Assembly (NCBI GenBank): GCA_016201405.1
Contig: JACQCZ010000017.1
Location: 89,227-153,226 of the forward strand
Source of the DNA: Candidatus Acetothermia bacterium
Lineage (GTDB): Bacteria; Bipolaricaulota; Bipolaricaulia; RBG-16-55-9
Length of the DNA: 64,000 bases
Direction of reading: 5' to 3'
The notes under the pieces were generated by a model that did no database searches, was not told where the DNA came from, and saw only the letters and a list, made by a program, of their open reading frames with translations. Positions 398-34,395 of the stretch are shown here, piece by piece (within the stretch, counting starts at the first letter, position 1; each line of letters starts with the position of its first letter). A program made the position numbers and the translations under genes.

Positions 398-1609
398 TTA
401 TTTTGTAATCTTGTATACGGCGCCACCAAGATCAACAATGTAGAGCTCGCCCTCTTGATCTTCACCCAATGAGCTGATGTTGAAGCCCAGATCTCGAAGC
501 TGGGTCATTTGCCACTGGCCAGTGCTGTCTTGAACGAGCGACCAGAGATGTCCGGTGCAGTAGTCTGCGAATAGATAATGTCCATCGAGGTCTGGAATCT
601 CTGTGCCGCGATAAACATATCCACCAGTCACGGCGCAATCGCCAGCGGAATGATCATATTCTGCGATGGGCAGGGTCAGGCCAGTCCGGTTGCAGCCAGA
701 CGAGGGATGAAAGCAGTGAGTGCCTTCCATAGTGTTCCAGCCATAGTTGCCACCTGAATCGATCAGATCGATCTCCTCATAATTTCCCTGGCCCACATCG
801 GCCAAGAAGAGGCGTCCGTTGCAGCGGTCAAAGGAATAGCGCCAAGGGTTACGGAGTCCATAGGCGTAGACTTCTTTTCCGGCGACAGTTGTGTTGATAA
901 ACGGGTTGTCAGCAGGGATGGCATAAGGCTTGCCATCAGTGTTGTCCACATCAATGCGCAAGAGTTTTCCCAATAATACAGAGAGATTCTGCCCATTCCC
1001 TTGGGGGTCGCCACCCGATCCGCCATCTCCCATGCCGATGTAAAGATAGCCATCGGGGCCGAACTTGACGAGTCCGCCATTGTGATTGCTAAAGGGCTGG
1101 CGAATGACGAGCAAGACGTGCTCGCTAGCGAGATCGGCCAGGTTCGGATCAGAGCCGACGTGAAACTCGGCAATGATGGTTGCGCCATCTCCGGCTCGCG
1201 TGTAATCCACGAAGAGGCGGCCATTCTGAGCATAGTTAGGATGGAAGGCGACGCTGAGCAGACCTTGCTCACCGCCTCCTCGAGTGCGGTTGCCAAGATT
1301 CAAGAACGGGGCTGCCAGAGGCTTTCCATCTTGCAAGATGCGAATCGTTCCAGTCTGTTCGACGATAAAGAGTCTGCCGGAATTATCTCGTGCGCTTGTC
1401 ACATAGAGCGGGGATGAGAGACCGCTGGCGATCTGGACAAGATTGAAGTCCGGTTTTTGCACGATGGGATTTGGTCCGGTGCAGGGGTCTGCTGTCTGTG
1501 GGTCCGAAGCGTGAACGATGGCATTTGGCATTCCGAAACAGCCCGTTGCAAAGAGAGATGTCATAAGAATGAGAACCAGGCTTCGAAGAGTCGTGCAAAA
1601 ATGATGCAT
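398..1609 (-). CDS. PQQ-dependent glucose/sorbosone dehydrogenase family, probable lipoprotein
   Basis: GEQGLL, NHNGG..FGPDGYLY, YAYGLRNPWR and NYGW motifs; FATGC lipobox; start moved to ATG 1609 behind GAGGTG. Confidence 0.85.
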   Translation of the reverse strand: MHHFCTTLRSLVLILMTSLFATGCFGMPNAIVHASDPQTADPCTGPNPIVQKPDFNLVQIASGLSSPLYVTSARDNSGRLFIVEQTGTIRILQDGKPLAAPFLNLGNRTRGGGEQGLLSVAFHPNYAQNGRLFVDYTRAGDGATIIAEFHVGSDPNLADLASEHVLLVIRQPFSNHNGGLVKFGPDGYLYIGMGDGGSGGDPQGNGQNLSVLLGKLLRIDVDNTDGKPYAIPADNPFINTTVAGKEVYAYGLRNPWRYSFDRCNGRLFLADVGQGNYEEIDLIDSGGNYGWNTMEGTHCFHPSSGCNRTGLTLPIAEYDHSAGDCAVTGGYVYRGTEIPDLDGHYLFADYCTGHLWSLVQDSTGQWQMTQLRDLGFNISSLGEDQEGELYIVDLGGAVYKITK

Positions 1610-1690
1610 TTCCATCACCTCGCTCAAAATTTTAGCATCTTTTAAAAAAATCTGATTGAATTGGCCGCTTGGAGAGAGGAAAATAGAGAT

Positions 1691-3094
1691 GTGCTTGAGA
1701 AGAAGATTGAGCAAACAATCAAAAAATATAAGATGCTTGCTCCTGGAGACCGGGTGCTGATCGCCGTCTCTGGTGGAGTAGATTCTGTTGTGTTGTTTAG
1801 AACTCTCTGCGAATTGGCCAAGGATTGGGATTTCAAATTGGCCGTCGCGCACCTCGATCATCAGATGCGAATGGATTCCCACAAAGACGCAGAGTTTGTG
1901 AGCAAGCTGGCGAAAGAGCTTGGTGTTCCGGTCTTTGTGAAGGCTGTCGATGTACCCCAGTTGATCAAAAAGATGAAGCGTTCCCCGGAAGAAGTCGCAC
2001 GTGAAGCACGCTATGCGTTTCTGAAAGAGGCTGCACGAAAATTCAAGGCTAACCCAATCGCATTAGGACACCATCTCAATGACCGGGTTGAGACCTTTCT
2101 GCTCAATCTGCTGCGCGGCTCCGGGCTGCAAGGGCTGGCAGGGATGCCACCAGTTCGCAGCCAAGCTGCTTTAAGGTTCATTCGGCCTTTGATTGATTGC
2201 ACCCGTGATGAGATTGAAGAGCTGGCTCATTCAGGGAAATGGAAGTACCGAAATGATCCAAGCAATCAAAAGTCAATCTATACCCGCAACCGGGTGAGAC
2301 AAGAGCTTCTTCCAGTCATCATGGGATTCAATCCCAATGCACTAGAGACGATTGCTCGCGCCTCAGAGACTTTGCACAAAGCCAATCGCTTTGTGGATCA
2401 AATCGCGAGTGAGTTTTTAGAAAAAGTCCTTTTATCACAAAATAAAAATGAGATCGCTCTTGATAGAGAGATGCTGCGAAGCCACGATGAGTTCTTGCTA
2501 GAGTCTGTTTTGCGAGAGGCGATTCGCAGGGTGAAAGGCAATGTGCATGGCATCGAATCTGCGCATATAGAGCGTGCACTTCATGAGCTTGACAAGAAAA
2601 GCTCTGGGTCGTGGATTCCGCTAGGCAGTGGTCTCTTCATCGCGTTTGAGTCCAGCAGAATTGTGATCACAACAAGCGAGCCTTCAACAAAGCGCACCAA
2701 GAGTTTCTGCTTTGAGTTAAGTCTGGGGGGGAATCTGGTATCTTCCGCCATTGGCTGGCACTTTGAGGTCGAGGTTCTGGCAGGCAGAAGGACTCGTGTT
2801 GCTGACTGTTGGGAAGCGCTCTTTGATTTCGATAAGATTAAGCACCCCCTGGTGGTGAGGAATCGCCGTCGCGGTGACCGTGTTAGGACGTTAGGCCTTA
2901 AGGGGGAGAAGAAGATTCAAGATATCTTGGTAGATGCCAAAATTCCAAGAGGAAATCGGGATCTGATCCCGATTATCTGTGATTCAGATGGAATCTTATG
3001 GGTCGTTGGATTGCGAATGAGCGAGCGCGCCCGGGTGACCGCCAAGACCCGCAAAATCATGAGAATCCGGGCTATCCCGCGTGAACAGGAGTGA
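1691..3094 (+). CDS. tilS: tRNA(Ile)-lysidine synthase
   Basis: AVSGGVDS PP-loop, EEVAREARY, GHHLNDRVET, RNRVR and C-terminal TilS_C (RNRRRGD...KKIQDIL); GTG start after GAGAGGA. Confidence 0.95.
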   Translation: MLEKKIEQTIKKYKMLAPGDRVLIAVSGGVDSVVLFRTLCELAKDWDFKLAVAHLDHQMRMDSHKDAEFVSKLAKELGVPVFVKAVDVPQLIKKMKRSPEEVAREARYAFLKEAARKFKANPIALGHHLNDRVETFLLNLLRGSGLQGLAGMPPVRSQAALRFIRPLIDCTRDEIEELAHSGKWKYRNDPSNQKSIYTRNRVRQELLPVIMGFNPNALETIARASETLHKANRFVDQIASEFLEKVLLSQNKNEIALDREMLRSHDEFLLESVLREAIRRVKGNVHGIESAHIERALHELDKKSSGSWIPLGSGLFIAFESSRIVITTSEPSTKRTKSFCFELSLGGNLVSSAIGWHFEVEVLAGRRTRVADCWEALFDFDKIKHPLVVRNRRRGDRVRTLGLKGEKKIQDILVDAKIPRGNRDLIPIICDSDGILWVVGLRMSERARVTAKTRKIMRIRAIPREQE

Positions 3095-23458: not shown

Positions 23459-24061
23459 TCAGCCTGCTCTTAGCTTCGGATTCCAAGGATATTCAATATA
23501 GCGTGCCGTTTCTGCAGCGGCCCTCTTCCCCAAAATCTTGGATACGACATAGAATGACATATCGATCCCAGCCGAGACGCCTGCCGATAAGATAATCTTT
23601 CCGTTGTCTACCACGCGCTCTTTATCCAGGACCTTAGCATCGGGAGCGAGCTCTTTGAGCATATCTAGTGCCATAAAATGAGTTGTCGCTTTTAAGCCTT
23701 TGAGCAGCCCTGCCTCGGCCAAGACCAATGCTCCCGTGCAGACAGAGAGCAGATATTCACAACTCTCTGATTTCTCGCGTATCCAGTTTAGAACGTTCTC
23801 ATTCTGTAGAAGCTTCCGCGTTCCGAATCCCCCAGGCACAACAATGATATCGGGCTCGGGGCATTGATCAATCAGATAACGCGGGTTGATGCTGAGAAGA
23901 TTTCTGGCCAGCACGGGCTTTGGTCTCTCTGCGACTGTGTAGACGTTGAAAGGCTCTAAATTATCACGTTTGCCAGTTACGGAAAAGACTTCAAATGGAC
24001 CGCAAAAATCAAGAACCTCAACCTCGTCAAAGATGAGAATGGCCACATTACGACTCTTCAT
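23459..24061 (-). CDS. DJ-1/PfpI family protein
   Basis: EVLDFCGPFEVF, SVCTGA and SAGVSAGID motifs. Confidence 0.9.
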   Translation of the reverse strand: MKSRNVAILIFDEVEVLDFCGPFEVFSVTGKRDNLEPFNVYTVAERPKPVLARNLLSINPRYLIDQCPEPDIIVVPGGFGTRKLLQNENVLNWIREKSESCEYLLSVCTGALVLAEAGLLKGLKATTHFMALDMLKELAPDAKVLDKERVVDNGKIILSAGVSAGIDMSFYVVSKILGKRAAAETARYIEYPWNPKLRAG

Positions 24062-24690
24062 CCCAAGCTCCTTTTATCAAAGTCTCTTTTGATCAGCTCA
24101 TACTCTTCTGGTGTGTCCATATCCCACTGGGTCACTTCTTCTCCAGATTCTAGAAGAATCTTTTCGGAATCTGCCCAGTGAGTTTTGACCAGACTCATCG
24201 CACTCGTCTCGCCCTGCAGCTTCATTACTTCTGGCCAAAGCTCACGGGGAAATAAAACTGGATGCCCCTTTTCGTCGTTCAGAACTGGAAACGTCAATTT
24301 ACCCAGCTTAGCAAATTGCTCAATGACTCGATTGATAAGCGCACTTGTCATGAGGGGCATATCTCCAGGGAGGAAGAGCGCACCCAAAGCATTGCTTGGC
24401 ATCTTTTTGATGGCTGTTCGAACAGAAGAAGCCCTTCCGGTCGGCCAATTCGGATTCTCGATCACACTCAGTTTTGAATGACGCCCAAGCTCTTCCAATG
24501 CTCGAATGATCTTTGGTCTCTCAAATCCAGTGATCAAAAAGATGCTCTCAAGCTGAGACTCAAGCATCGCTCTGGTCGTGTGATAAATTACAGCATGCCC
24601 GCAGAGAGGCATCAAAAGCTTGTTTCCGATCTCAAAACGGCTGCTATCTCCGGCGGCCAAAACTACACCGGGAATCTTATCGCTCATCAT
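24058..24690 (-). CDS. mocA: Molybdenum cofactor cytidylyltransferase, MocA-like
   Basis: LAAGDSSRF..NKLL, GDMP, GHPVLF and DMDTPEEY motifs; adjacent to xdhC. Confidence 0.8.
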   Translation of the reverse strand: MMSDKIPGVVLAAGDSSRFEIGNKLLMPLCGHAVIYHTTRAMLESQLESIFLITGFERPKIIRALEELGRHSKLSVIENPNWPTGRASSVRTAIKKMPSNALGALFLPGDMPLMTSALINRVIEQFAKLGKLTFPVLNDEKGHPVLFPRELWPEVMKLQGETSAMSLVKTHWADSEKILLESGEEVTQWDMDTPEEYELIKRDFDKRSLG

Positions 24691-25801
24691 GGATTGGAGA
24701 ATTTCGCTCGCGTAAAAAGCCGCCGAGCCGCCCATTCTGGTAGGCCAGAATCTCGCTGAGGATGCTGAGTGCAATCTCTTCAGGGGTCTCTGCGCCGAGG
24801 TCAAGCCCAATTGGGGCATGCAATCTTGCTAATGTTTTTTTACTTGGCTTGCCTATCTCTTTCTCGATCTCGGCCAGCAACTCTTCCGTCCGTGATCGCG
24901 GACCAATTTGCCCAATGTACTGCACATCACTTTTGATGACATTCTTCAAAATCTCAAGATCATAGAGATAGTTGTGCGTCATAATAACAACAAACATTCT
25001 GGAATCGAGTGAAACTTTGTCTGGGAATTCTGTAGGATGGGCATAGATGAGCTTCTCGATATCAGGAAATCTTTCTCTTCTTAAATATTCCGCACGGTGA
25101 TCGACAACTGTGACTTGGAACCCCAATTGGAGCGCCATCTGGGCGAGCGGCTGGGCATCAAAACCGGCTCCAAAGATGACAAGTCTTTCTGACGGCTCTA
25201 TTCTCTCAGCATAGATTCGGATCTTCTCTTTCCCAAGAGAGAGTGACTTTGTAAAGGTTCTCGTTTTTTCGGGAAACTTTTCTAGCTCTGCAAAGATGGC
25301 TTCATCCCATTTTGATGGGTCTGAAGTCATGCCAACAAGTTTTTCTGGAATAAAGAGCCAGTGCTTCCCAGTCGACAAGTCGGTTGACTGACTCTCGATT
25401 GCCACAGCGAGAGTGCAAGAGACTTCATTCTGCAGCAATCCAAGCAGCGATGAATAAAGATGAGTTTCTGATTTTTTTTGTACGACAGGTTCAATAAAAA
25501 CCTCAATGGTGCCCCGGCAACCTAGACCCGTGCCGGCGATGATGTCCATCTCTTCTCTCGTATCAAAGTGAAGAAGGTTTGATTTACCCGATGCGATAAC
25601 TCTCTTTGCGGTGGAGATGACCTCGTCTTCAAGACAGCCTGCGCTAACAGCACCAAACTTCTCTGACTTGGTAACAAGAAGACGAGCGCCTGGTTTGCGA
25701 TAGGTCGAGCCGCTGGTGGCAACGACGGTCGCCAACGCGATGGGAGTCTTGGGCTGAAGAAGCGAATCTAATCGTGCGAAGATTTGGTGCTTCTCATACA
25801 T
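24677..25801 (-). CDS. xdhC: XdhC/CoxI family Moco chaperone
   Basis: GSTYRKPGA, GCLE, FGAG, MTHN and PIGLDLGAETPEEIA motifs. Confidence 0.9.
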   Translation of the reverse strand: MYEKHQIFARLDSLLQPKTPIALATVVATSGSTYRKPGARLLVTKSEKFGAVSAGCLEDEVISTAKRVIASGKSNLLHFDTREEMDIIAGTGLGCRGTIEVFIEPVVQKKSETHLYSSLLGLLQNEVSCTLAVAIESQSTDLSTGKHWLFIPEKLVGMTSDPSKWDEAIFAELEKFPEKTRTFTKSLSLGKEKIRIYAERIEPSERLVIFGAGFDAQPLAQMALQLGFQVTVVDHRAEYLRRERFPDIEKLIYAHPTEFPDKVSLDSRMFVVIMTHNYLYDLEILKNVIKSDVQYIGQIGPRSRTEELLAEIEKEIGKPSKKTLARLHAPIGLDLGAETPEEIALSILSEILAYQNGRLGGFLRERNSPIHDER

Positions 25802-26840
25802 TACTGCCCATTGTAGCGAGTTCTGTGAGCGCTCGCTTTAGATAGACTGGAGCCATCCGCTTGCGATAGAAGAGATGAAAGTCAGTATTGTCAAGCGGAC
25901 GGGCAGGATTAAAGACAGATTGAGATGCAGCTTCAATCTGATTCTCTGTCAGCCTCTTCCCAGTCAGAATATTCTGAGCCTCTGCCATCTCAAAGGGACA
26001 GGAGCCAATACCACCCAGAACTACTTTTGCATGTTCCACTGTGCCATCCTTTGCCTGCTTCAGTGCCACGGCAACTCCAAGCACAGGGAAATCAAACGAC
26101 TCACGCCGTCGCAGCTTCCAATAGGTGCTCTTGATGCCGTCCGATGGCGGCAATTGAATCTCAGTGAGGATCTCATCATGAGCTTTGCTGAGATAGAACA
26201 TGCCATCGTCGTTGTACAAGTCTTTTACTGAAATGACACGCTCACCTTTGCTGCCGATGAGCTTTAGTTTTGCGCCAAGTGCAATTAACATCGGTGCGCT
26301 ATCGGTCGATGAGACGGCCCAGCAGCGTGAGCTTCCTGGTGCCACCCGGCATGGGACTCCACTCTGGTTGAGCTTTGAGTCTTGCAGAACGGGCCAGCCC
26401 TTGCCGCTTGGAGCCTTCATACACCATCCAATCGCTTGTCGCCAGTGATGAGTCTGATCGTAATAATTGCACCTCGTATCGAGACAGAGATTGCCGCCAA
26501 TCGTGCCCATGTTTCGTAGTATCGGTGTCGATACGGCTCCTGCTGCTTTGGCAAGTCCTGCATAGCTCTCCTGAACAACAGAGTGACTACTGACCTCCGT
26601 AAGAGTCGCACTTGCGCCCAGTGTGAGCCCAGATTTTGCACTGCCCGAAATCCTATCCAGATCATCAATTTTGCGCAGTCCGATGAGTGTCTTGGGAAGG
26701 AACTGGCGGCGCTTCATCTTCGGGTAGATATCGGTTCCGCCAGCTACAATCATGGCCGCAGGTCCTTGATCTGCCAGAATCTTGCAGGCATCATTGATGT
26801 TTTGAGGGGTAAGGTATTGAAACTTAGGGAGTCGTAGCAT
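25794..26840 (-). CDS. Mo-hydroxylase FAD subunit, HcrB-like with Fe-S insertion
   Basis: AGGTD and RNMGTIGGN motifs; Cys-rich insert RCNYY...WCMK...CRV...RCWA. Confidence 0.85.
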   Translation of the reverse strand: MLRLPKFQYLTPQNINDACKILADQGPAAMIVAGGTDIYPKMKRRQFLPKTLIGLRKIDDLDRISGSAKSGLTLGASATLTEVSSHSVVQESYAGLAKAAGAVSTPILRNMGTIGGNLCLDTRCNYYDQTHHWRQAIGWCMKAPSGKGWPVLQDSKLNQSGVPCRVAPGSSRCWAVSSTDSAPMLIALGAKLKLIGSKGERVISVKDLYNDDGMFYLSKAHDEILTEIQLPPSDGIKSTYWKLRRRESFDFPVLGVAVALKQAKDGTVEHAKVVLGGIGSCPFEMAEAQNILTGKRLTENQIEAASQSVFNPARPLDNTDFHLFYRKRMAPVYLKRALTELATMGSNV

Positions 26841-26843
26841 GAT

Positions 26844-29228
26844 CTATCTTTTCCACTCGGCCGGAACTTCCACTTTGACGGGCTCCGGAAAGTTGTAGCT
26901 GGGGATGCCCTTGGGGCCGACTCGCGGCGGATTACCCTTCTTCTTCTCTTCCAGAGCTTTGAGGACCTTTTCTGGAGTGATCGGAATCTCGTCAATGTGG
27001 ATTCCCAGCGCATTATAGACGGCATTGGCCACGGCAGGAATGACCGGGCTGAGTGGGCCTTGCCCTGCTTCCTTGGCACCAAACGGGCCATTTGGCTCAT
27101 CGGTCTCGACCAGAATTGTCTCAACCGGAGGCATCTCTTTGAAAGTGAGGCTCTTATAGTCCAGAAGCGATGGAATTTTGTGCAAATTTTTCCTGAAATC
27201 TTGTTCTTCCATCAAGACCTCGCCAAGCCCCATATAGACGCTGCCTTCGACTTGGCCAATGACCGAGAGAGGATTGAGTGCCCGGCCAATGTCATGCGCG
27301 ATCCAGATCTTTTCCACCTTGACCTCGCCCGTCTCTGCATCACAATCAACTTCTGCCACACAGGTCGAAAAGCTGTAAGCGGGTGATGGCCCAACGCCCG
27401 AGCCTTTGTACTGGCCTATTTTGGGGGCGGGCTTGTAGCTCCCTACGGCGCCTATGGGTCCAAATTTGGCTTCAGCCAATTGTGCTGCATCTTTGAATGA
27501 AAGCTTGTTTTCAGGGTTTTCTTTATCAAAAATGACTCGGTCTCGTGCTTCTAATTTCTCAATGGAGACATCCATCTCTTCGGCTGCCGCCTCGAAGATC
27601 GGCTCTCGCACTTTCATTGCGGCATCGATCGCTGCGTGCCCCATCATCATGGTCACGCGGCTTGAATAGGTCCCCAGATCGATCGGCGTCAGATCCGTAT
27701 CTGCAGTCACAAGGCTGACATCCGTTTGGTAGAGTCCGAGGACTTCTGCTACCAGTGAGGCCAGCACGGTGTTTGAGCCCTGGCCAATATCAATCGCTCC
27801 TGAAAATGCCGTCACCAAGCCAGAGCGGTCGACCTGAATCTGGACTTCAGACTGAGGCAGCTCGTTCCAGTAAATAGGAAGCCCAGCGCCGCAAATATAA
27901 GTGCTGAGCGCAAAGCCGATTCCTTTGCCTTTGGGAAGCTTTCCAAATTTTGTCTTCCAGCCTGATGCCTTGAGTACTTCCTCGGTGCACTCTTTTGAGC
28001 CATTGCTGTTGATCTTGAGCCAGTTGACCGTGACATGGTTTGGTCCGGTCATGTTCTTCTGCCGGATAGCGATGGGGTCGAGCTTCAGATCCTCGGCCAG
28101 TCTGTCGAGCTGGCGCTCGATCGCAAATCGCGGCTGTGGAGTGCCGTGAGCTCGCTTTGGTCCGCAGGCAGGTTTATTGGTGAAAGCCCGAATCGCCTGG
28201 AATCTGTAATTGGGAATTTTGTATGTGACGGTTTGTAATGCTCCTGTGTAATATATGCTCGCGGGCCCGTATGAGCCATAGGCGCCGCCGTCAAGAAAAG
28301 ACTTGAAGTGCATTGCGGTGATTTTCCCATCTTTCGTCACACCCGTTTTGACCCACATCAGAACCGGGTGGCGCCCACGATGGGCATAGAAGACCTCTTC
28401 ACGGGTCAGCGTGATCTTGATGGGTCTGCCAATCAGCATACTCAGCTTGCAGGCGCAGATTTCGTGTGAGAAGGGATCATCTTTGCCGCCAAAGCCGCCG
28501 CCAACAGGAGCAGCGACCACCCGAATCTTGTGATCCGGAAGCTCTAAGACTTTGGCCAACGCCCGATGCACATAGTGAGGGGTCTGTGTTGCGCTCCAAA
28601 TCGTCATCTTCTCCTCTGATGGATTCCAGGATGCAACGGCAGAGTGCTGTTCCATGGGAAGGTGCGTATTTCCCTGATAGAAATAGACATCTTCTCGGAT
28701 GTGATCGGCCTCTCCAAACCCGCCATCCACATCTCCAAAATCGATCGAGACAATTTTGTGAAGATTGCCCTCCGGCCCATAGTCATGAATGCGAGGCTCT
28801 TTGATATTGATCGCATCTTCAAGCGACATGACGGCCTTGAGTGGCTCATATTGGACGTCAATGAGCAAGAGAGCCTCTTCGGCAGTCTCTTCATCCAGCG
28901 CTGCAACCGCAACAACGGGCTCGCCGACATAGCGAACTCTGTCCAATGCCAATGCATGCTCGTCCTGGCTGGTCGGCATGATTCCGAATTGTATTGGAAG
29001 ATCTCTTCCAGTAATCACTCCCAAAACGCCAGGCAGCTTTTCGGCTCTGCTCACATCGATCTTTTTGATGAGCGCGTGGGGGTGAATGCTGGGAAGAATT
29101 TTCCCATAGACCATGCGGGGCAGACGAAGATCATCGGCATATTTGGTGCGACCAGTGCATTTATCTCCGGCATCCACTCGTGGCAAGGACTTTCCAATGA
29201 CTGAGAATTCGCTCTTTGCTTTGGCCAC
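26844..29228 (-). CDS. Mo-hydroxylase molybdopterin subunit (xanthine oxidase family, HcrA-like)
   Basis: VGGGFGGK, RAHGTPQ, DIGQGS, GQVEG and GAKEAGQG motifs. Confidence 0.9.
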   Translation of the reverse strand: MAKAKSEFSVIGKSLPRVDAGDKCTGRTKYADDLRLPRMVYGKILPSIHPHALIKKIDVSRAEKLPGVLGVITGRDLPIQFGIMPTSQDEHALALDRVRYVGEPVVAVAALDEETAEEALLLIDVQYEPLKAVMSLEDAINIKEPRIHDYGPEGNLHKIVSIDFGDVDGGFGEADHIREDVYFYQGNTHLPMEQHSAVASWNPSEEKMTIWSATQTPHYVHRALAKVLELPDHKIRVVAAPVGGGFGGKDDPFSHEICACKLSMLIGRPIKITLTREEVFYAHRGRHPVLMWVKTGVTKDGKITAMHFKSFLDGGAYGSYGPASIYYTGALQTVTYKIPNYRFQAIRAFTNKPACGPKRAHGTPQPRFAIERQLDRLAEDLKLDPIAIRQKNMTGPNHVTVNWLKINSNGSKECTEEVLKASGWKTKFGKLPKGKGIGFALSTYICGAGLPIYWNELPQSEVQIQVDRSGLVTAFSGAIDIGQGSNTVLASLVAEVLGLYQTDVSLVTADTDLTPIDLGTYSSRVTMMMGHAAIDAAMKVREPIFEAAAEEMDVSIEKLEARDRVIFDKENPENKLSFKDAAQLAEAKFGPIGAVGSYKPAPKIGQYKGSGVGPSPAYSFSTCVAEVDCDAETGEVKVEKIWIAHDIGRALNPLSVIGQVEGSVYMGLGEVLMEEQDFRKNLHKIPSLLDYKSLTFKEMPPVETILVETDEPNGPFGAKEAGQGPLSPVIPAVANAVYNALGIHIDEIPITPEKVLKALEEKKKGNPPRVGPKGIPSYNFPEPVKVEVPAEWKR

Positions 29229-29232
29229 GCTC

Positions 29233-29721
29233 TTACTCCTTTGAAGCGCCCAGCCGGGAGGCTGTCAATTCGACGGCTTCAATAATCTTCCAGTAGCCAG
29301 TGCAGCGGCAGAGATTTCCAGAGAGCGCCTCTTTGATCTCATCTTGGCTTGGATTCTTATTCTCATCAAGCAATGCTTTGGAGCTCAGCAGCATTCCCGG
29401 AGTGCAGTAGCCACACTGAGCCGCTTGCAGCTCGATAAATGCCTGCTGAATGGGGTGAAGCTTTCCGTTCTGCTCAAGTCCTTCAATGGTGGTGATCTTC
29501 TGCCCCTGGATCTCAACTCCTAATGTGAGGCATGAAAGAATGGGCTGGTCATTGATCAGCACTGTGCAGGTCCCACACTCACCCACTTCACAGCCGTGCT
29601 TCGTTCCGGTCAGGTCTAAATCTTCACGCAGAATCTCTAATAGGGTCTTGTTGACTGTAACAGCAACCTCATAACGCTCGCCATTGATTTGAAGAGTGAT
29701 CAGAGTTTTTTGAGATTCCAA
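29233..29721 (-). CDS. Mo-hydroxylase 2x[2Fe-2S] subunit (HcrC/CoxS-like)
   Basis: GCEVGECGTC, QCGYCTPG and NLCRCTGY motifs; TTG start chosen by RBS (the ORF could extend to 29775). Confidence 0.92.
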   Translation of the reverse strand: MESQKTLITLQINGERYEVAVTVNKTLLEILREDLDLTGTKHGCEVGECGTCTVLINDQPILSCLTLGVEIQGQKITTIEGLEQNGKLHPIQQAFIELQAAQCGYCTPGMLLSSKALLDENKNPSQDEIKEALSGNLCRCTGYWKIIEAVELTASRLGASKE

Positions 29722-29830
29722 CAGGCCCCCCTTAGTCTTCGCTGTGCCGACCGCACCAGTATAGAACATAATCAAGGAGCCTTACAAGAATCTTGGGGGT
29801 GAGACTCTGTCAGACTATTTTTCGATCTAC

Positions 29831-32800
29831 TTAGCTGAAGTTGGGAAATTTACGCAATTGCTCTACAAGCCCCTGATATAAAGCCTCGCTCTCTAGAGCG
29901 GAAGTGAGCTTCTTATGAAGAGTTCTTGCGCTGCGCGGATGAATCTCCAGGCGGTCGATCAGCGTATCTCTTGCACCCTCATTGCTGCCTAAATCTGCGA
30001 TCAGCAAAAGACCTTGAAAGAGCTTGGAGATAGGCAGATTGCTGTTGGCAAAGATCGTCCCTGTGCGGTCGGCAAAGGTCTTTTTGCAATTCGTGCAGAG
30101 ATAGCGCTTCTCTCTTGAGCTGCTTACATGGCCATGAATTCGCACCTTTTGCCCCTGGCAATAGGGACAAATCACTCCATTGGCCCAACGGATCCGCCGC
30201 AGCAGCTCATAGCATTCCGGGTCGTCGCGCTGAATAGATCGCACAGAATCCTCCAGACTCTTGGCAATCTCGCTGTGAATAGGGACATTCTTGAGGTAAC
30301 TCGAGCGCAGCCGCTCATTGCATATTTTTGCAGCCTGCTCCATCAGAATGTGATAGGCTTTGCGGAGCGAGGCCTTCGCCTCCTCGGGGCGGTCCATGCC
30401 CGACAAGACCTGATAGCTGCGAAACCAGACCCACGGTCCATACAAAGTGTGGTTCAGCACGCCCAAGATCTCTAAAGCCATTTCTGAGCTCTGAAAGGCG
30501 CCTGTGAGATTCCCCAGAATTAGATGGCTGTGACTCTCATCCATGTGAAGAAGCATCTCTTCACCCTTTTGTTTCATGGCGCGGCTGATCACCAATGCTT
30601 CTCGATAATGATCTAAGGCGAGTTGTGGGTCTCCAGAATCATGCAGCATCTCTCCTACGTTTCTCAGCACCACACCCATGTTCCTTTGATCGTTGTTCTG
30701 CCGATGCAGGCGAATGGCCTCTCGCCCTATTTGAATAGCCTGTTGCATCTCGCCAAGACGCCAATAGATTATGCTCAGATTTCCCAATGCCAGTGCTTCG
30801 CCCTGCTGTGAGCGAACTTCACAAAATGTGGTCAAAGAGTCGCTCAGGCACTCTTGTGCCTTTTTGTGCTCACCCAAAAACCAATATACCGCCCCCAGAT
30901 TATTGAGATCGCTGGCACAAGCTCTCCGGTCACCGATCTCTTGGTGAATGCGAGCGGCCTCTCTCATATGTTCGATGGCAACTTCAAATTGCCCGATATT
31001 GTGAGAGGCCAGGCCTAGATTTCCTAAAGAGCGGGCCTCCCCCCGGCGGTCTCCAATCTTGGCCGCTAGCTCCCGAACCTCGCTCAAGATCTTAATGGCC
31101 TCAGAATAATTCTCCTGCGTCCAGTGCATAGCTCCTCTAGCCAGCAGTGTCAGCGCCTTGCCGGGCAAGTCGTTGAGTCTCTCCCGTAATGCCAGCGCTT
31201 CGCTAAGCTGTTTCTCAGCCCTTTCAAAATCTCCTCTGCGCCACGATATACCAGCGAGATAATGCAGAGTTTCGGCGCGACTCTTATCATCGCCAAGCCT
31301 GATTTGCAGCTTGTATTCATCGTTCAGATAACTTAGAGCTGAGTCATAATCGGTCGTATACCAATAAATGAGAGCGATGCTGTGGAGGGAGCGGGCTTCC
31401 AGGGGTTCATCCGATATTGTCTTAGCGATTTCTAGAGCTTTATAACTCTCAAGCTGGGCCTCGGGGTACTTCGTCATGTCAATACAATATTTGGCTCTGA
31501 GGAGATGGGCATGTGCACTTTTAGCAGGATCTTGCAGACTCGCAGAAACCGCCAATACATCCTCGATATCTTTAGCTTGTGCCTCGCGATTGGCCAGGAT
31601 CTCATGGAGCTTTATCCGCTCACAAAGAACCTCAAATTTCATTTCGTCTAGATGAGAATTGGCCTTGTCTTCTGAGGTTAAGCGGGCTAGATGCTCCAAT
31701 GCCCTTTCGGCGAGCGAGAGCCCTTCTGAATTGCGAAAGCCGCGAACTGCGCGTTTCAATGAGGGAAGAATGTCACGGAGTGCCTGCTCATGCAGACCGG
31801 CCAATCCATAGTGATAGGCAAAGAGCTCATAAGGGCGCTGATCGCCGTCTTCCAGGGAGTCTTCTAGAGATGCAGCCCAAATTCCGTGTAGATATGCGCG
31901 GCGATCTTGAGGAATCTCTTGATAGACCACCTCACGGATTTTGTCATGGGCGAAGTTGTAGCCCCCAGGATCTGAGAAGATTACCTGCATCTTCTCGAGG
32001 CTCTCTAGCTTTTGTCTGAGATCCTGCTCATTCTCGCCCAGATCCAATTGCTGACAGAACGTGGAAAGAAGTTTCGGGTCAGCATTCGACCCGATCACAC
32101 TGATGGCTTGTGACAACGTGAGTAGTGGTGGATCCAGCCGGGCGATGCGCGTCCGGATGACTTGCTGAATCTCTTTGGGCAGGCGGCCTTCTCTCTGGTT
32201 GTCAATTTGGCTAATGTGATGCGCCCATCCTCCATCCGGAGCCATCTCGATCCTCTTCTCTTCAAACATAGATTGAAGCAAAAAGACGACAAAGAGCGGG
32301 TTGCCTCCGCTCTCTCTATGCAGAAAGCGCGCTAAGAGATCCAGATGAGGGGTCTGCGGAGCCGTTTTTTGCAATAAATCATCCATCTCTATCCGCGTCA
32401 GGCGGTTCAATAAAAGACTTTTTGTATTCTTCTGGCGCGTTGGATGATCGGCATAACGGACCAGACGCCTGACTGGATGGGATTCATGCACTTCCTCACC
32501 TCGATAGGTGGCCATCAAAAGGACGCGGCTTTGGGACAGGCGTGCGCTGGCATAGTCCATCCAGTCAAGAATGGAAGAGTCTGCCCATTGGAGATCATCC
32601 AGAAAGAGCAAGATAGGAGACTGAGTCTCGCTAAGCCGTAAAAGAAGCTGAGTGACTGCCTCGAAAAAACGCAACCGCTCAAGCTCTGGACCGAGCGTAG
32701 GAATAACTTCTGGGGTTTGGATCAGACCTTCAACACCATGCAGCCAGGGGCGCAGAACAGATAGGCTAAACGCAGGTAGCTCCTCAAGCTGCAGTCGTGA

Positions 32801-33883
32801 GAGCTGGGCAAGCTGATTTCTGATGGCCATCATCAGCGCCTGATAGGGTGTGAGGCTGGCCGACTCGCTGCATCGCCCTTGAAGCACTGAAAAACCGAAT
32901 TCCTGTCGAGCGATTTGGATTACCTCTTGAGCCAGCCGGGTCTTGCCAATGCCCGCCTCTCCTCCAATTAGCACCAGTCTTCCGCTTCGCTCTCGCGTCT
33001 TTTGAAGGCACTCCAGCAAGCTTTCCCATTGGTGTTGACGCCCAGTGAAGGGTAAGCGGCTGAATGAATGGTGGATGGGATGACGCACCAAAGCAGGCGG
33101 GCGGTATTCCGGATCGACACCAGGGACATAGCCAGCGGAAATCTGCTCTCTCAGCCTGCGGGTCTGAGAGTCTGGAAGTCGGTCAAACTCTCTTTCTAAG
33201 AAGCTCTCGCAGTCTTGATAAATCTTGAGCGCCTCGTTGGAGTTTCCCATCAAATAGCAGTAGAGCATCGCTTGCCGGTAGAGGTCTTCGCGAACGGGAG
33301 ATGCGAGTATTGCCTCTCGGCACCGCTCTAGGGCTTGACGATAGTGCCCAAGTTTCGCCAGACAGTCGGCCAGCTCTAGCAAAATAGAGACATGGATCTC
33401 ATTCCAGCGCTGGGAATCGGTAAAGGCCCACGCTTCGTACCGATCTTCAGGCAGATATTCACCTTGAAAGAGACCAAGAGCCTTCTCAAACCACTCAGCA
33501 GCCTGTTCGAGCCTCTTCTCATGCAGAAAACTTCTGGCTCTTTTGGCCGTGTCAAGCAGCTCAAGAATGTCGATCGCACAATTGGGCTGCGGATTAAAGC
33601 GATAGCCTCCTGGGCAGGTCTGCACATATTGATAAGTCGAGCCCGCATGGGGCTCCAGGACTTGACGAAGAGAATGAACCCGTGCGCGCAAGAATTGGAG
33701 GGCTTTCTCAAGATTGACGTCAGGCCAGATATGCTCAATTAGCTGTTCATGCAAAAAGACGCGTCCAGGCTCAGAGAGCAGAATCTTGAGCAAAATCTTG
33801 GCTTGCTCTGAACCCCATTCCTCAATGACAACACCATCTCGATAGACAGTAAGCCCCCCAAGAAGTCTGATGCGGAGTCCCAT
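29831..33883 (-). CDS. SARP wHTH-BTAD / STAND ATPase / TPR regulator with C-terminal IS1595-type Zn-ribbon-HTH
   Basis: LRIRLLGG, PVREDLY (BTAD), GEAGIGKT, LFLDDLQWAD, TPRs, then IRWANGVICPYC...YLCTNCKKTF..RTGTIF. Confidence 0.85.
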   Translation of the reverse strand: MGLRIRLLGGLTVYRDGVVIEEWGSEQAKILLKILLSEPGRVFLHEQLIEHIWPDVNLEKALQFLRARVHSLRQVLEPHAGSTYQYVQTCPGGYRFNPQPNCAIDILELLDTAKRARSFLHEKRLEQAAEWFEKALGLFQGEYLPEDRYEAWAFTDSQRWNEIHVSILLELADCLAKLGHYRQALERCREAILASPVREDLYRQAMLYCYLMGNSNEALKIYQDCESFLEREFDRLPDSQTRRLREQISAGYVPGVDPEYRPPALVRHPIHHSFSRLPFTGRQHQWESLLECLQKTRERSGRLVLIGGEAGIGKTRLAQEVIQIARQEFGFSVLQGRCSESASLTPYQALMMAIRNQLAQLSRLQLEELPAFSLSVLRPWLHGVEGLIQTPEVIPTLGPELERLRFFEAVTQLLLRLSETQSPILLFLDDLQWADSSILDWMDYASARLSQSRVLLMATYRGEEVHESHPVRRLVRYADHPTRQKNTKSLLLNRLTRIEMDDLLQKTAPQTPHLDLLARFLHRESGGNPLFVVFLLQSMFEEKRIEMAPDGGWAHHISQIDNQREGRLPKEIQQVIRTRIARLDPPLLTLSQAISVIGSNADPKLLSTFCQQLDLGENEQDLRQKLESLEKMQVIFSDPGGYNFAHDKIREVVYQEIPQDRRAYLHGIWAASLEDSLEDGDQRPYELFAYHYGLAGLHEQALRDILPSLKRAVRGFRNSEGLSLAERALEHLARLTSEDKANSHLDEMKFEVLCERIKLHEILANREAQAKDIEDVLAVSASLQDPAKSAHAHLLRAKYCIDMTKYPEAQLESYKALEIAKTISDEPLEARSLHSIALIYWYTTDYDSALSYLNDEYKLQIRLGDDKSRAETLHYLAGISWRRGDFERAEKQLSEALALRERLNDLPGKALTLLARGAMHWTQENYSEAIKILSEVRELAAKIGDRRGEARSLGNLGLASHNIGQFEVAIEHMREAARIHQEIGDRRACASDLNNLGAVYWFLGEHKKAQECLSDSLTTFCEVRSQQGEALALGNLSIIYWRLGEMQQAIQIGREAIRLHRQNNDQRNMGVVLRNVGEMLHDSGDPQLALDHYREALVISRAMKQKGEEMLLHMDESHSHLILGNLTGAFQSSEMALEILGVLNHTLYGPWVWFRSYQVLSGMDRPEEAKASLRKAYHILMEQAAKICNERLRSSYLKNVPIHSEIAKSLEDSVRSIQRDDPECYELLRRIRWANGVICPYCQGQKVRIHGHVSSSREKRYLCTNCKKTFADRTGTIFANSNLPISKLFQGLLLIADLGSNEGARDTLIDRLEIHPRSARTLHKKLTSALESEALYQGLVEQLRKFPNFS

Positions 33884-33976: not shown

Positions 33977-34010
33977 AGAAAGAGCAGATTGCCTCGAATC
34001 TGCTCTTTCT
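33977..34010 (-). terminator. Intrinsic terminator
   Basis: 14-bp perfect stem AGAAAGAGCAGATT / AATCTGCTCTTTCT downstream of 34039-34395. Confidence 0.75.
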
Positions 34011-34038: not shown

Positions 34039-34395
34039 CTAGCTTTGGGGTTTAAGATTCAAGATAACATGACAACTCCCGCTCGATTCAAATTCCAATT
34101 GCACGCCGTCGACACGGAGCTGTGTAAAGCTGAGGCTAGAGGTCGTTTGATCTGCAAGAGAGGTCTTATTGCCATCCGCATTGACCAAATAGAACTCACT
34201 GGTGCAGGTGCTGAGGCTCTGGAAACTGAGATTGGCAGGTTGTACTCCTTGGAACTGGCCCCAATGGGGGTCTGTCGTTTGGGCTTGGGTAGCAGGATAG
34301 AGAAGGCCGAATGCTGCAATAAATAGCCCGACTCCGAAAAGAATTGTCACGCCACGAATGGCCTTGCGATATGTTGAAAATTCCCTGTTCAACAT
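34039..34395 (-). CDS. Small exported hypothetical protein
   Basis: GAGGTG RBS, signal-like hydrophobic segment, two Cys, followed by a terminator. Confidence 0.6.
   Translation of the reverse strand: MLNREFSTYRKAIRGVTILFGVGLFIAAFGLLYPATQAQTTDPHWGQFQGVQPANLSFQSLSTCTSEFYLVNADGNKTSLADQTTSSLSFTQLRVDGVQLEFESSGSCHVILNLKPQS

Follow-up and report, generated by a model that had tools for sequence, protein, structure and literature searches.

The window analysed here, a stretch of 64,000 nucleotides from a Candidatus Acetothermia bacterium (contig JACQCZ010000017.1, positions 89,227 to 153,226 of the forward strand), encodes on its minus strand a 1350-aa regulator, P0001, in which the SARP-NOD-TPR plan of large SARP/STAND regulators continues at the extreme C-terminus into a module of the kind that heads IS1595 transposases. 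Judged from sequence, this fusion of a SARP-STAND regulator with an IS1595-type head is a conserved, previously undescribed family and no accident.

By its domains, P0001 is a SARP and a large SARP/STAND regulator. The frame is uninterrupted, being a single open reading frame (ORF) in both the ORF list and the translation, and Pfam finds the two domains that make up a SARP unit, a winged helix-turn-helix (wHTH) with a bacterial transcriptional activation domain (BTAD) directly behind it. The P-loop NOD and TPR sensor expected of a large SARP/STAND regulator are also present, the former with Walker motifs that are intact, A being GGEAGIGKTRL (GxxGxGKT) and B being LLFLDDLQWAD (hhhhDD), and all of the domains named in the architecture (SARP unit, AAA_16, and Zn ribbon) score above their Pfam cut-offs. 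The gene is laid out as follows, from the N-terminus to the C-terminus of its product; the model cited is an AlphaFold2 model of the tail with its predicted local distance difference test (pLDDT) scores, and HTH stands for helix-turn-helix.

29831..33883, minus strand: whole gene of P0001, the SARP-NOD-TPR-Zn-ribbon/HTH regulator, 1350 aa (ORF list, translation, and Pfam)
33596..33793, minus strand: Trans_reg_C, OmpR-type winged helix, residues 31-96 (PF00486, 36.2 bits, cut-off 26.2)
33140..33571, minus strand: BTAD, residues 105-248 (PF03704, 82.8 bits)
32516..33052, minus strand: AAA_16 P-loop NTPase of the NOD, residues 278-456 (PF13191, 94.4 bits)
31604..32515, minus strand: remaining NOD/arm, residues 457-760 (collinear alignment with the family; limits approximate, by analogy with AfsR as given in the accessible text of PMC10936776)
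30314..31603, minus strand: TPR sensor-type region, residues ~761-1190 (TPR_12 at 149.4 bits in Pfam, with further TPR models at 870-1100)
30227..30313, minus strand: TPR-to-tail junction, residues 1191-1219 (poorly conserved, mean pairwise identity 0.26; model pLDDT 64-80)
30077..30226, minus strand: IS1595-type Cys4 zinc ribbon, residues 1220-1269, with C1239, C1242, C1263, and C1266 (PF12760; three strands in the model)
29849..30076, minus strand: FxDRTGTxF motif and four-helix HTH-like segment, residues 1270-1345 (conservation, model, and IS1595 alignment)
29831-29833, minus strand: stop codon of P0001

The part from 29831 to 30226 corresponds to residues 1220-1350 plus the stop codon. The translation holds the strings quoted in the original prediction, which was made from the letters of this DNA alone, with RLRSSYLKNVPIHSEI first and ECYELLRRIRWANGVICPYC...RYLCTNCKKTFADRTGTIFANSNLPISK later, in the TPR-then-tail frame that it described. 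Its proposal that the tail carries the zinc ribbon of IS1595 transposases is borne out by Zn_ribbon_IS1595 (PF12760), which matches residues 1220-1269. The score is 34.9 bits for full-length P0001 and 39.1 bits for a search of the last 141 residues alone, both above the cut-off of 25.4. As it had also noted, no DDE domain follows: Pfam finds no DDE_Tnp_IS1595 domain (PF12762) in P0001, and the 55-61 bp between its stop codon and the next gene leave no space for a DDE remnant. GC content does not break at the tail, where 400-bp windows range from 0.48 to 0.54, against 0.46-0.56 for the gene. A GerE/LuxR HTH is absent from the Pfam matches of P0001 at E <= 0.01 (best 25 of 28) and from those of the tail alone (four families), and P0001 is therefore not a MalT/LAL regulator. 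PADLOC had no match for the tail, and the whole protein matched a generic TPR model alone. A role as an anti-phage STAND protein (Avs/NLR-like defence) was considered and rejected, given that no defence model matched in PADLOC and that the effector is a SARP transcription unit in Pfam.

The resemblance to IS1595 transposases extends beyond the ribbon. An exhaustive phmmer search with the last 141 residues of P0001 against 1.84 billion representative proteins returned 3066 matches at E <= 0.001, and the best 150 of these were classified together with three genome-derived relatives, giving 153 sequences. Short proteins of <250 aa account for 110, while 16 are of transposase length with the domain N-terminal, 12 are of at least 1000 aa with the domain C-terminal, and 15 are of other types. 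All 16 transposase-length sequences were scanned with Pfam, and DDE_Tnp_IS1595 is present in 13 (the exceptions being P0082, P0097, and P0132). In the phmmer alignments, tail residues ~9-133 pair with residues ~10-131 of DDE-bearing proteins (e.g. P0030, P0100, and P0113), and DDE_Tnp_IS1595 starts at ~121-132 in the aligned transposases. Because the alignment spans the entire region ahead of the DDE domain, homology extends over the complete head rather than a CxxC...CxxC motif, and the Cys4 and FxDxTGTxF signatures are common to the P0001 tail and the IS1595 heads. These alignments identify the tail of P0001 as a homolog of the full N-terminal Zn-ribbon and helical head of IS1595 transposases. 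When P0001 is held against the definition of such a transposase, the Zn ribbon and helical head are there, but C-terminal in place of N-terminal, and neither terminal inverted repeats nor multiple copies were found, with a single PF12760 locus in a draft genome that is 90.8% complete. P0001 lacks two of the three defining features: the DDE domain is missing, and so are repeats and further copies.

The AlphaFold2 model, which covers residues 1195-1350 and was built from a 71-sequence alignment, has a mean pLDDT of 90.7 and a predicted template modelling (pTM) score of 0.81, and consists of a helix, then a ribbon of three strands, then four more helices (model positions 91-104, 108-118, 122-138, and 140-151, equivalent to P0001 residues 1285-1345). 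An HTH-like segment had been read from the sequence in the original prediction; the four helices are there in the model, while the matches that would make them a wHTH or homeodomain fold are weak. These matches, from a VIA-align search over the helical part (best Z 5.0), are mostly to MarR-, ArsR-, and homeodomain-type DNA binders, including FabT, and calling the segment HTH-like is a reasonable description of the model. Matches of the tail to C2H2-finger and L37Ae zinc motifs in a profile search of Protein Data Bank (PDB) sequences were judged spurious. The tail is net basic in all 11 full-length family members described below (+1 to +10), and the TPR region is net acidic in 9 of the 11.

The fusion is neither unique to this assembly nor decaying, two of the outcomes that the original prediction had named against itself: it is found in 11 diverged full-length proteins in which the tail is the best conserved part. 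The search for its domain architecture, among the best 150 of 3066 tail matches, gave nine proteins of at least 1000 aa, and eight of the nine combine BTAD, AAA_16, TPR, and Zn_ribbon_IS1595. Seven of these eight also carry Trans_reg_C, which is not found in P0016 at E <= 1e-4, and P0009 is an N-terminally cut fragment that begins inside AAA_16. Over 1343 aa, P0002 (1347 aa) is 45% identical to P0001 with zero gaps. Intact genes with the same domains are also present in loci L009, L010, L011, and L056 (1351, 1401, 1373, and 1349 aa, respectively); the Pfam scores of L056 are identical to those of P0021, and the two are probably the same protein.

An alignment of the 11 diverged full-length members (26-44% identity to P0001) has 54 invariant columns, 13 of them within residues 1228-1278. 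Invariant positions are all four Cys, L1228, R1229, R1232, W1233, R1260, F1270, D1272, T1276, and F1278, including an F-x-D-x-x-x-T-x-F motif, and the Walker residues G308, G311, G313, K314, and D429 are likewise invariant in 11 of 11. Mean pairwise identity is 0.45 in the Zn ribbon and again 0.45 in the 30 residues after it, exceeding all other segments (0.26-0.38), namely the wHTH (0.38), AAA_16 (0.37), BTAD (0.35), TPR (0.30), arm (0.29), last 50 residues (0.27), junction (0.26), and wHTH/BTAD-to-NOD linker (0.26). The junction, residues 1191-1219, also carries insertions in the G029/P0013 lineage. A dN/dS comparison of the tail, which the original prediction had proposed, gave nonsynonymous rates (dN) far below synonymous rates (dS), with dN 0.31 and dS 2.2 for G022 against L056 and dN 0.43 and dS 2.6 for G000 (the genome of P0001) against G002; dS is saturated (2.2-3.1) or undefined in both gene pairs, and the comparison supports only a dN well below dS. 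Levels of dN in the tail are similar to those in other domains of P0001. Overall, P0001 is a protein under constraint, most strongly so in its tail.

The genome of P0001 is a draft of 1.99 Mb in 19 contigs, 90.8% complete, and holds exactly one PF12760 locus, that of P0001. No PF12762 locus was found in it, in an assembly of that completeness and of a kind in which repeats often go unassembled. Among reference genomes, the tail query matches 5 of the 35 from the order and 27 of the 184 from the phylum. Long frames (1359-1408 aa) come from G000, G002, G029, and G022, all of one order, and the remaining matches in the phylum are frames of 116-341 aa, transposase-like or shorter. A scan of JGI metagenomes added a C-terminal fragment (L053), the L056 gene, and an ORF of TPR plus Zn module (L055). 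Six BTAD loci are present in the genome of P0001. One of these, L047 (contig C7, 54629-55045), belongs to a second large frame of SARP type, 1066 aa long, which has BTAD but no zinc-ribbon tail, and there are four smaller BTAD loci besides, a high number for a 2-Mb genome.

We placed the fused tails in a quick maximum-likelihood tree of the domain (LG+G4), which includes 143 of the 153 classified sequences over 131 columns and in which most forks are weak; the other 10 sequences were left out for having <90 aa of extractable domain. All 16 fused tails fall in one group of 18 sequences with a Shimodaira-Hasegawa-like approximate likelihood ratio (SH-aLRT) support of 80, compatible with a single origin of the fusion. 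The other two members of the group are fragments, P0004, the first 33 residues of which resemble the end of the TPR region, and P0020, which begins mid-domain. Its neighbors in the tree are P0010, P0011, and stand-alone proteins of 137-168 aa that lack a DDE domain, and the DDE transposases are scattered elsewhere. The original prediction had the tail exapted from a transposase. The tree does not bear this out, as the fused tails neighbor DDE-less short proteins and short SARP+Zn fusions and lie outside the DDE transposases.

Several other proteins carry the same module in different surroundings. P0010 (413 aa) and P0011 (442 aa) are metagenomic short SARPs (wHTH and/or BTAD) joined directly to Zn_ribbon_IS1595, with no NOD or TPR. 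In L055, a complete 582-aa ORF (640-2388, plus strand) consists only of TPRs and a Zn_ribbon_IS1595 tail, with no SARP or NOD, and thus represents a third architecture with the same tail; it has a TPR_MalT match of 72 bits, a stop codon upstream, and a subtilase gene nearby. Two more metagenomic proteins join the Zn-ribbon module to a complete formiminotransferase (P0141, 460 aa, FTCD_N + FTCD), an odd partner in being an enzyme, and to DUF7347 + DUF7351 (P0083, 453 aa). The picture suggested by these sequences is one in which the IS1595 head is a promiscuous small domain common to transposases and regulators.

Downstream of P0001, and on the same strand, lie two features that bear on its possible targets.

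24058..29775, minus strand: Mo-enzyme operon of five genes, downstream of P0001 (Pfam)
29776..29830, minus strand: intergenic spacer from P0001 to the Mo-enzyme operon (sequence)

The five genes encode a 2Fe-2S subunit, a Mo-cofactor subunit, an FAD subunit, an XdhC-type chaperone, and a MobA-like nucleotidyltransferase. The best NCBIfam match of the Mo large subunit is 4-hydroxybenzoyl-CoA reductase alpha (844.8 bits, under the cut-off of 994.55), ahead of xanthine dehydrogenase models, which suggests that the operon provides an aromatic or heterocycle hydroxylase/reductase in this small 2-Mb genome. A pattern scan found no terminator-like site in 29776-29830, and no convincing SARP-type direct repeats were identified near the P0001 gene. 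The window holds 11 copies of the heptamer TAGACTC, a motif chosen post hoc, where 4.8 would be expected and none of 100 shuffles gave as many, and three copies lie within ~500 bp just upstream of P0001 (33931, 34011, and 34421). At ~33985-34010 on the minus strand, just after a small ORF (34039-34395), two 10-bp arms, AGAGCAGATT ... AATCTGCTCT, form a perfect inverted repeat with a T-rich stretch behind it. It was not listed by the terminator pattern scan, and it looks like a terminator of that ORF, which would separate the ORF from the P0001 promoter region.

The surroundings of the relatives differ. L009 has PD-(D/E)XK and PIN genes as neighbors, and L010 has a Crp-family regulator, an ABC exporter, and a split RamC_N / kinase-LanC lanthipeptide synthetase (L010 5733-11417, genome G029). 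The surroundings of L010 resemble a class III/IV lanthipeptide cluster in a metagenome-assembled genome (MAG) of Bipolaricaulota type. Both L011 and L056 adjoin an oligopeptide (Opp-type) ABC transporter. In L011 (12825-14636, minus strand, genome G022), a 603-aa BTAD + TPR protein, a 'medium SARP', stands immediately upstream of the fused regulator, such that two SARP paralogs are in tandem. With nothing like the Mo-enzyme operon beside these relatives, the targets, if local, differ by lineage.

We hypothesize, with somewhat better than an even chance of being right, that the tail acts as a second nucleic-acid-binding module in cooperation with the SARP unit. Under this hypothesis, a functional SARP/STAND regulator has stably gained a complete IS1595-type head (Cys4 zinc ribbon and HTH-like helices) at its extreme C-terminus; ATP and a signal would activate the protein via its NOD/TPR switch, whereupon the activated protein may engage promoters by a SARP dimer at the -35 region and the tail may contact a second site, lending added specificity, anchoring, or looping. 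The targets would probably be local genes that differ between lineages, with the adjacent Mo-enzyme operon as the obvious candidate here. An ATP-dependent switch as in AfsR is likely because the Walker motifs are invariant, and the homology of all parts, together with these invariant residues, points to an AfsR-like core. We read the tail as a second DNA-contacting module because it is homologous to the DNA-binding head of transposases, is net positive in 11 of 11 members, and stands behind SARP units that have no sensor (P0010 and P0011). Its position is also the one at which MalT/LAL-type STAND regulators carry their LuxR-type DNA-binding effector. A complex prediction of the SARP unit (residues 1-270) with the tail scored 0.01 against a mark of 0.32 and weighs on neither side.

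A number of observations weigh against a second DNA-contacting module. P0001 already has a DNA-binding domain and does not need another to function, and its own genome encodes a paralog without the tail (the 1066-aa frame with BTAD). The family is sporadic, with the long form in only 4 of 184 genomes of the phylum, and the neighborhood is not conserved across lineages (L009, L010, L011, and L056), which provides no common target set in support of a regulatory role for the tail. Structural searches add little: the profile search of PDB sequences found no relative of the tail among solved structures, a Foldseek search of the tail model against the PDB returned nothing at E <= 0.001, and the best Z of the VIA-align search of structure representatives is under the trust level of that tool.

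The main alternative, which we consider unlikely though deserving of serious attention, is that the tail does not bind promoters but extends the TPR end for regulation or sensing: it could bind a partner protein, hold the STAND switch off as a lid within the molecule, or serve as a redox or metal switch built on the Cys4 zinc site. The C-terminal region of STAND proteins is a sensor, and the NOD and TPR autoinhibit the effector, according to the accessible text of PMC10936776; all 11 family members keep the four Cys, the tail model matches DNA-binding folds only weakly, and the 582-aa protein of L055 pairs TPRs with the Zn module without any SARP domain. A sensor or lid does not sit well, however, with homology of the tail over its whole length to the pre-DDE head of transposases, with its retention of the family-wide FxDxTGTxF and TA-helix signature, with its net basic charge in every member, or with P0010 and P0011, in which the module follows wHTH+BTAD directly and there is no sensor to extend. 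A further and rather improbable variant makes DNA part of the switch itself, the tail docking an inactive monomer on a specific site, or sensing repeat or incoming mobile DNA, and thereby licensing NOD oligomerization there. If that were true, a STAND/NLR-type ATPase would be assembled on DNA by its tail and would activate RNA polymerase through its SARP unit, and, taken with the SARP+Zn, TPR+Zn, and other fusions, the transposase head would be a general and undescribed output or anchor domain of one-component regulators.

Control of the downstream Mo-enzyme operon by P0001 as a cluster-situated SARP is compatible with a second DNA-contacting module, and we hold it as a tentative proposal with appreciable but less than even prospects. 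The regulator gene and the operon share a strand, and the 55-61 bp between them hold no terminator-like site. SARPs usually control the cluster in which they lie, as stated in the portion of PMC10972967 available, and genes that could plausibly be local targets adjoin the relatives too, namely a cluster of lanthipeptide type (L010) and an oligopeptide ABC transporter (L011 and L056). Against it, none of the L009, L010, L011, or L056 relatives has a Mo-enzyme operon beside it, and SARP-type direct repeats were not identified near the gene. The original prediction had named this operon as a possible target, for which there is only local adjacency, the relatives being in unrelated neighborhoods. 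Its other suggestion, that the tail still recognizes IS1595 terminal repeats and that the protein senses or represses IS1595 elements, is very unlikely here. In IS1595 transposases the head is the part that putatively binds the element ends, and IS1595-type frames of 280-340 aa are found in 23 other genomes of the phylum, as well as alongside the fused gene in G002 and G022; yet the survey of its own genome gave no second PF12760 and no PF12762 match (in an assembly 90.8% complete), the fused tails form a tree group of their own away from the DDE transposases, and they are only 24-38% identical to transposase heads of the phylum, save one 45-residue partial match at 40%. Least probable of all, to the point of being negligible, is an origin of the fusion in misassembly or in the recent insertion of a decaying IS fragment at the 3' end of a regulator gene. 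A draft genome of 19 contigs makes this an a priori possibility only, and it is refuted by the gap-free alignment with P0002, by intact relatives with the same junction and frame in independent genomes and metagenomes (26-45% overall identity), and by a tail that is the most conserved segment and shows no compositional break.

With a transposase-type module kept under strong constraint at the end opposite to the SARP unit, the family offers a testable case of a mobile-element DNA-binding head reused in bacterial regulation. The biological effect is probably local, limited to how a few operons are controlled in an uncultured lineage, and P0001 is a clean example of a theme seemingly wider than one gene. 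There is also a consequence for annotation. PF12760 serves as a transposase marker in the annotation of mobile genetic elements (MGEs) (e.g. PMC13639185), by which proteins like P0001 would be miscounted as transposases.

Among known systems, MalT has a NOD, a TPR-like sensor, and a C-terminal LuxR HTH. Regulators of the MalT/LAL type thus resemble P0001 in having a module of DNA-binding type at the extreme C-terminus behind a TPR-like sensor, and the likeness extends in part to the sensor itself, with a TPR_MalT match that is weak in P0001 (28.5 bits, under the cut-off of 45 in Pfam) and reaches up to 72 bits in relatives (L055). They differ in that their C-terminal module is a GerE/LuxR HTH, whereas P0001 carries an IS1595-type zinc ribbon with helices, plus an N-terminal SARP effector. 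IS1595 transposases, for their part, differ from P0001 in having a DDE domain, inverted repeats, and an N-terminal head, whereas P0001 is single-copy with the head C-terminal. BguR (bioRxiv 10.64898/2026.01.10.698779) was considered as a precedent and set aside, with a GerE-like HTH and no zinc or transposase module in the available part of the preprint.

The closest parallel in plan is with AfsR and the large SARPs of Streptomyces, which share with P0001 the order wHTH, BTAD, P-loop NOD, and TPR (accessible text of PMC10936776 and PMC10972967). As far as the available part of PMC10936776 describes it, AfsR places two SARP units side by side on direct repeats that overlap the -35 element and contacts RNA polymerase, and ATP binding relieves an inhibition that its NOD and TPR impose on the SARP domain. 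AfsR ends, however, with its TPR region at ~990 aa, whereas P0001 has ~130 further residues that form the Zn-ribbon/HTH-like tail. The two are not orthologs, as P0001 scores 161 bits against a cut-off of 1430 with the AfsR equivalog model (NCBIfam NF053617) and matches it over residues 3-337 only. The lineages also differ, AfsR being from Actinobacteria and the P0001 family from Bipolaricaulota-type MAGs. The statement in the original prediction that SARP-STAND regulators normally end in TPRs or a LuxR HTH is contradicted as regards the latter by PMC10972967, which in its available part describes SARP-LALs, such as PimR, without a C-terminal LuxR HTH.

A full-text search of openly accessible papers found no description of a SARP-STAND + IS1595-head architecture. 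A review of recruitment from MGEs (PMC8987985) treats Xre and RHH domains and, in the text available, never mentions zinc, and the large SARP/STAND regulators in the accessible parts of PMC10972967 and PMC10936776 are described with a single DNA-binding unit. Against this background, the SARP-NOD-TPR plan is what is known, and what is new here, by comparison of sequences, is a large SARP that bears an additional module at its C-terminus, conserved and of transposase type, so far in a small clade.

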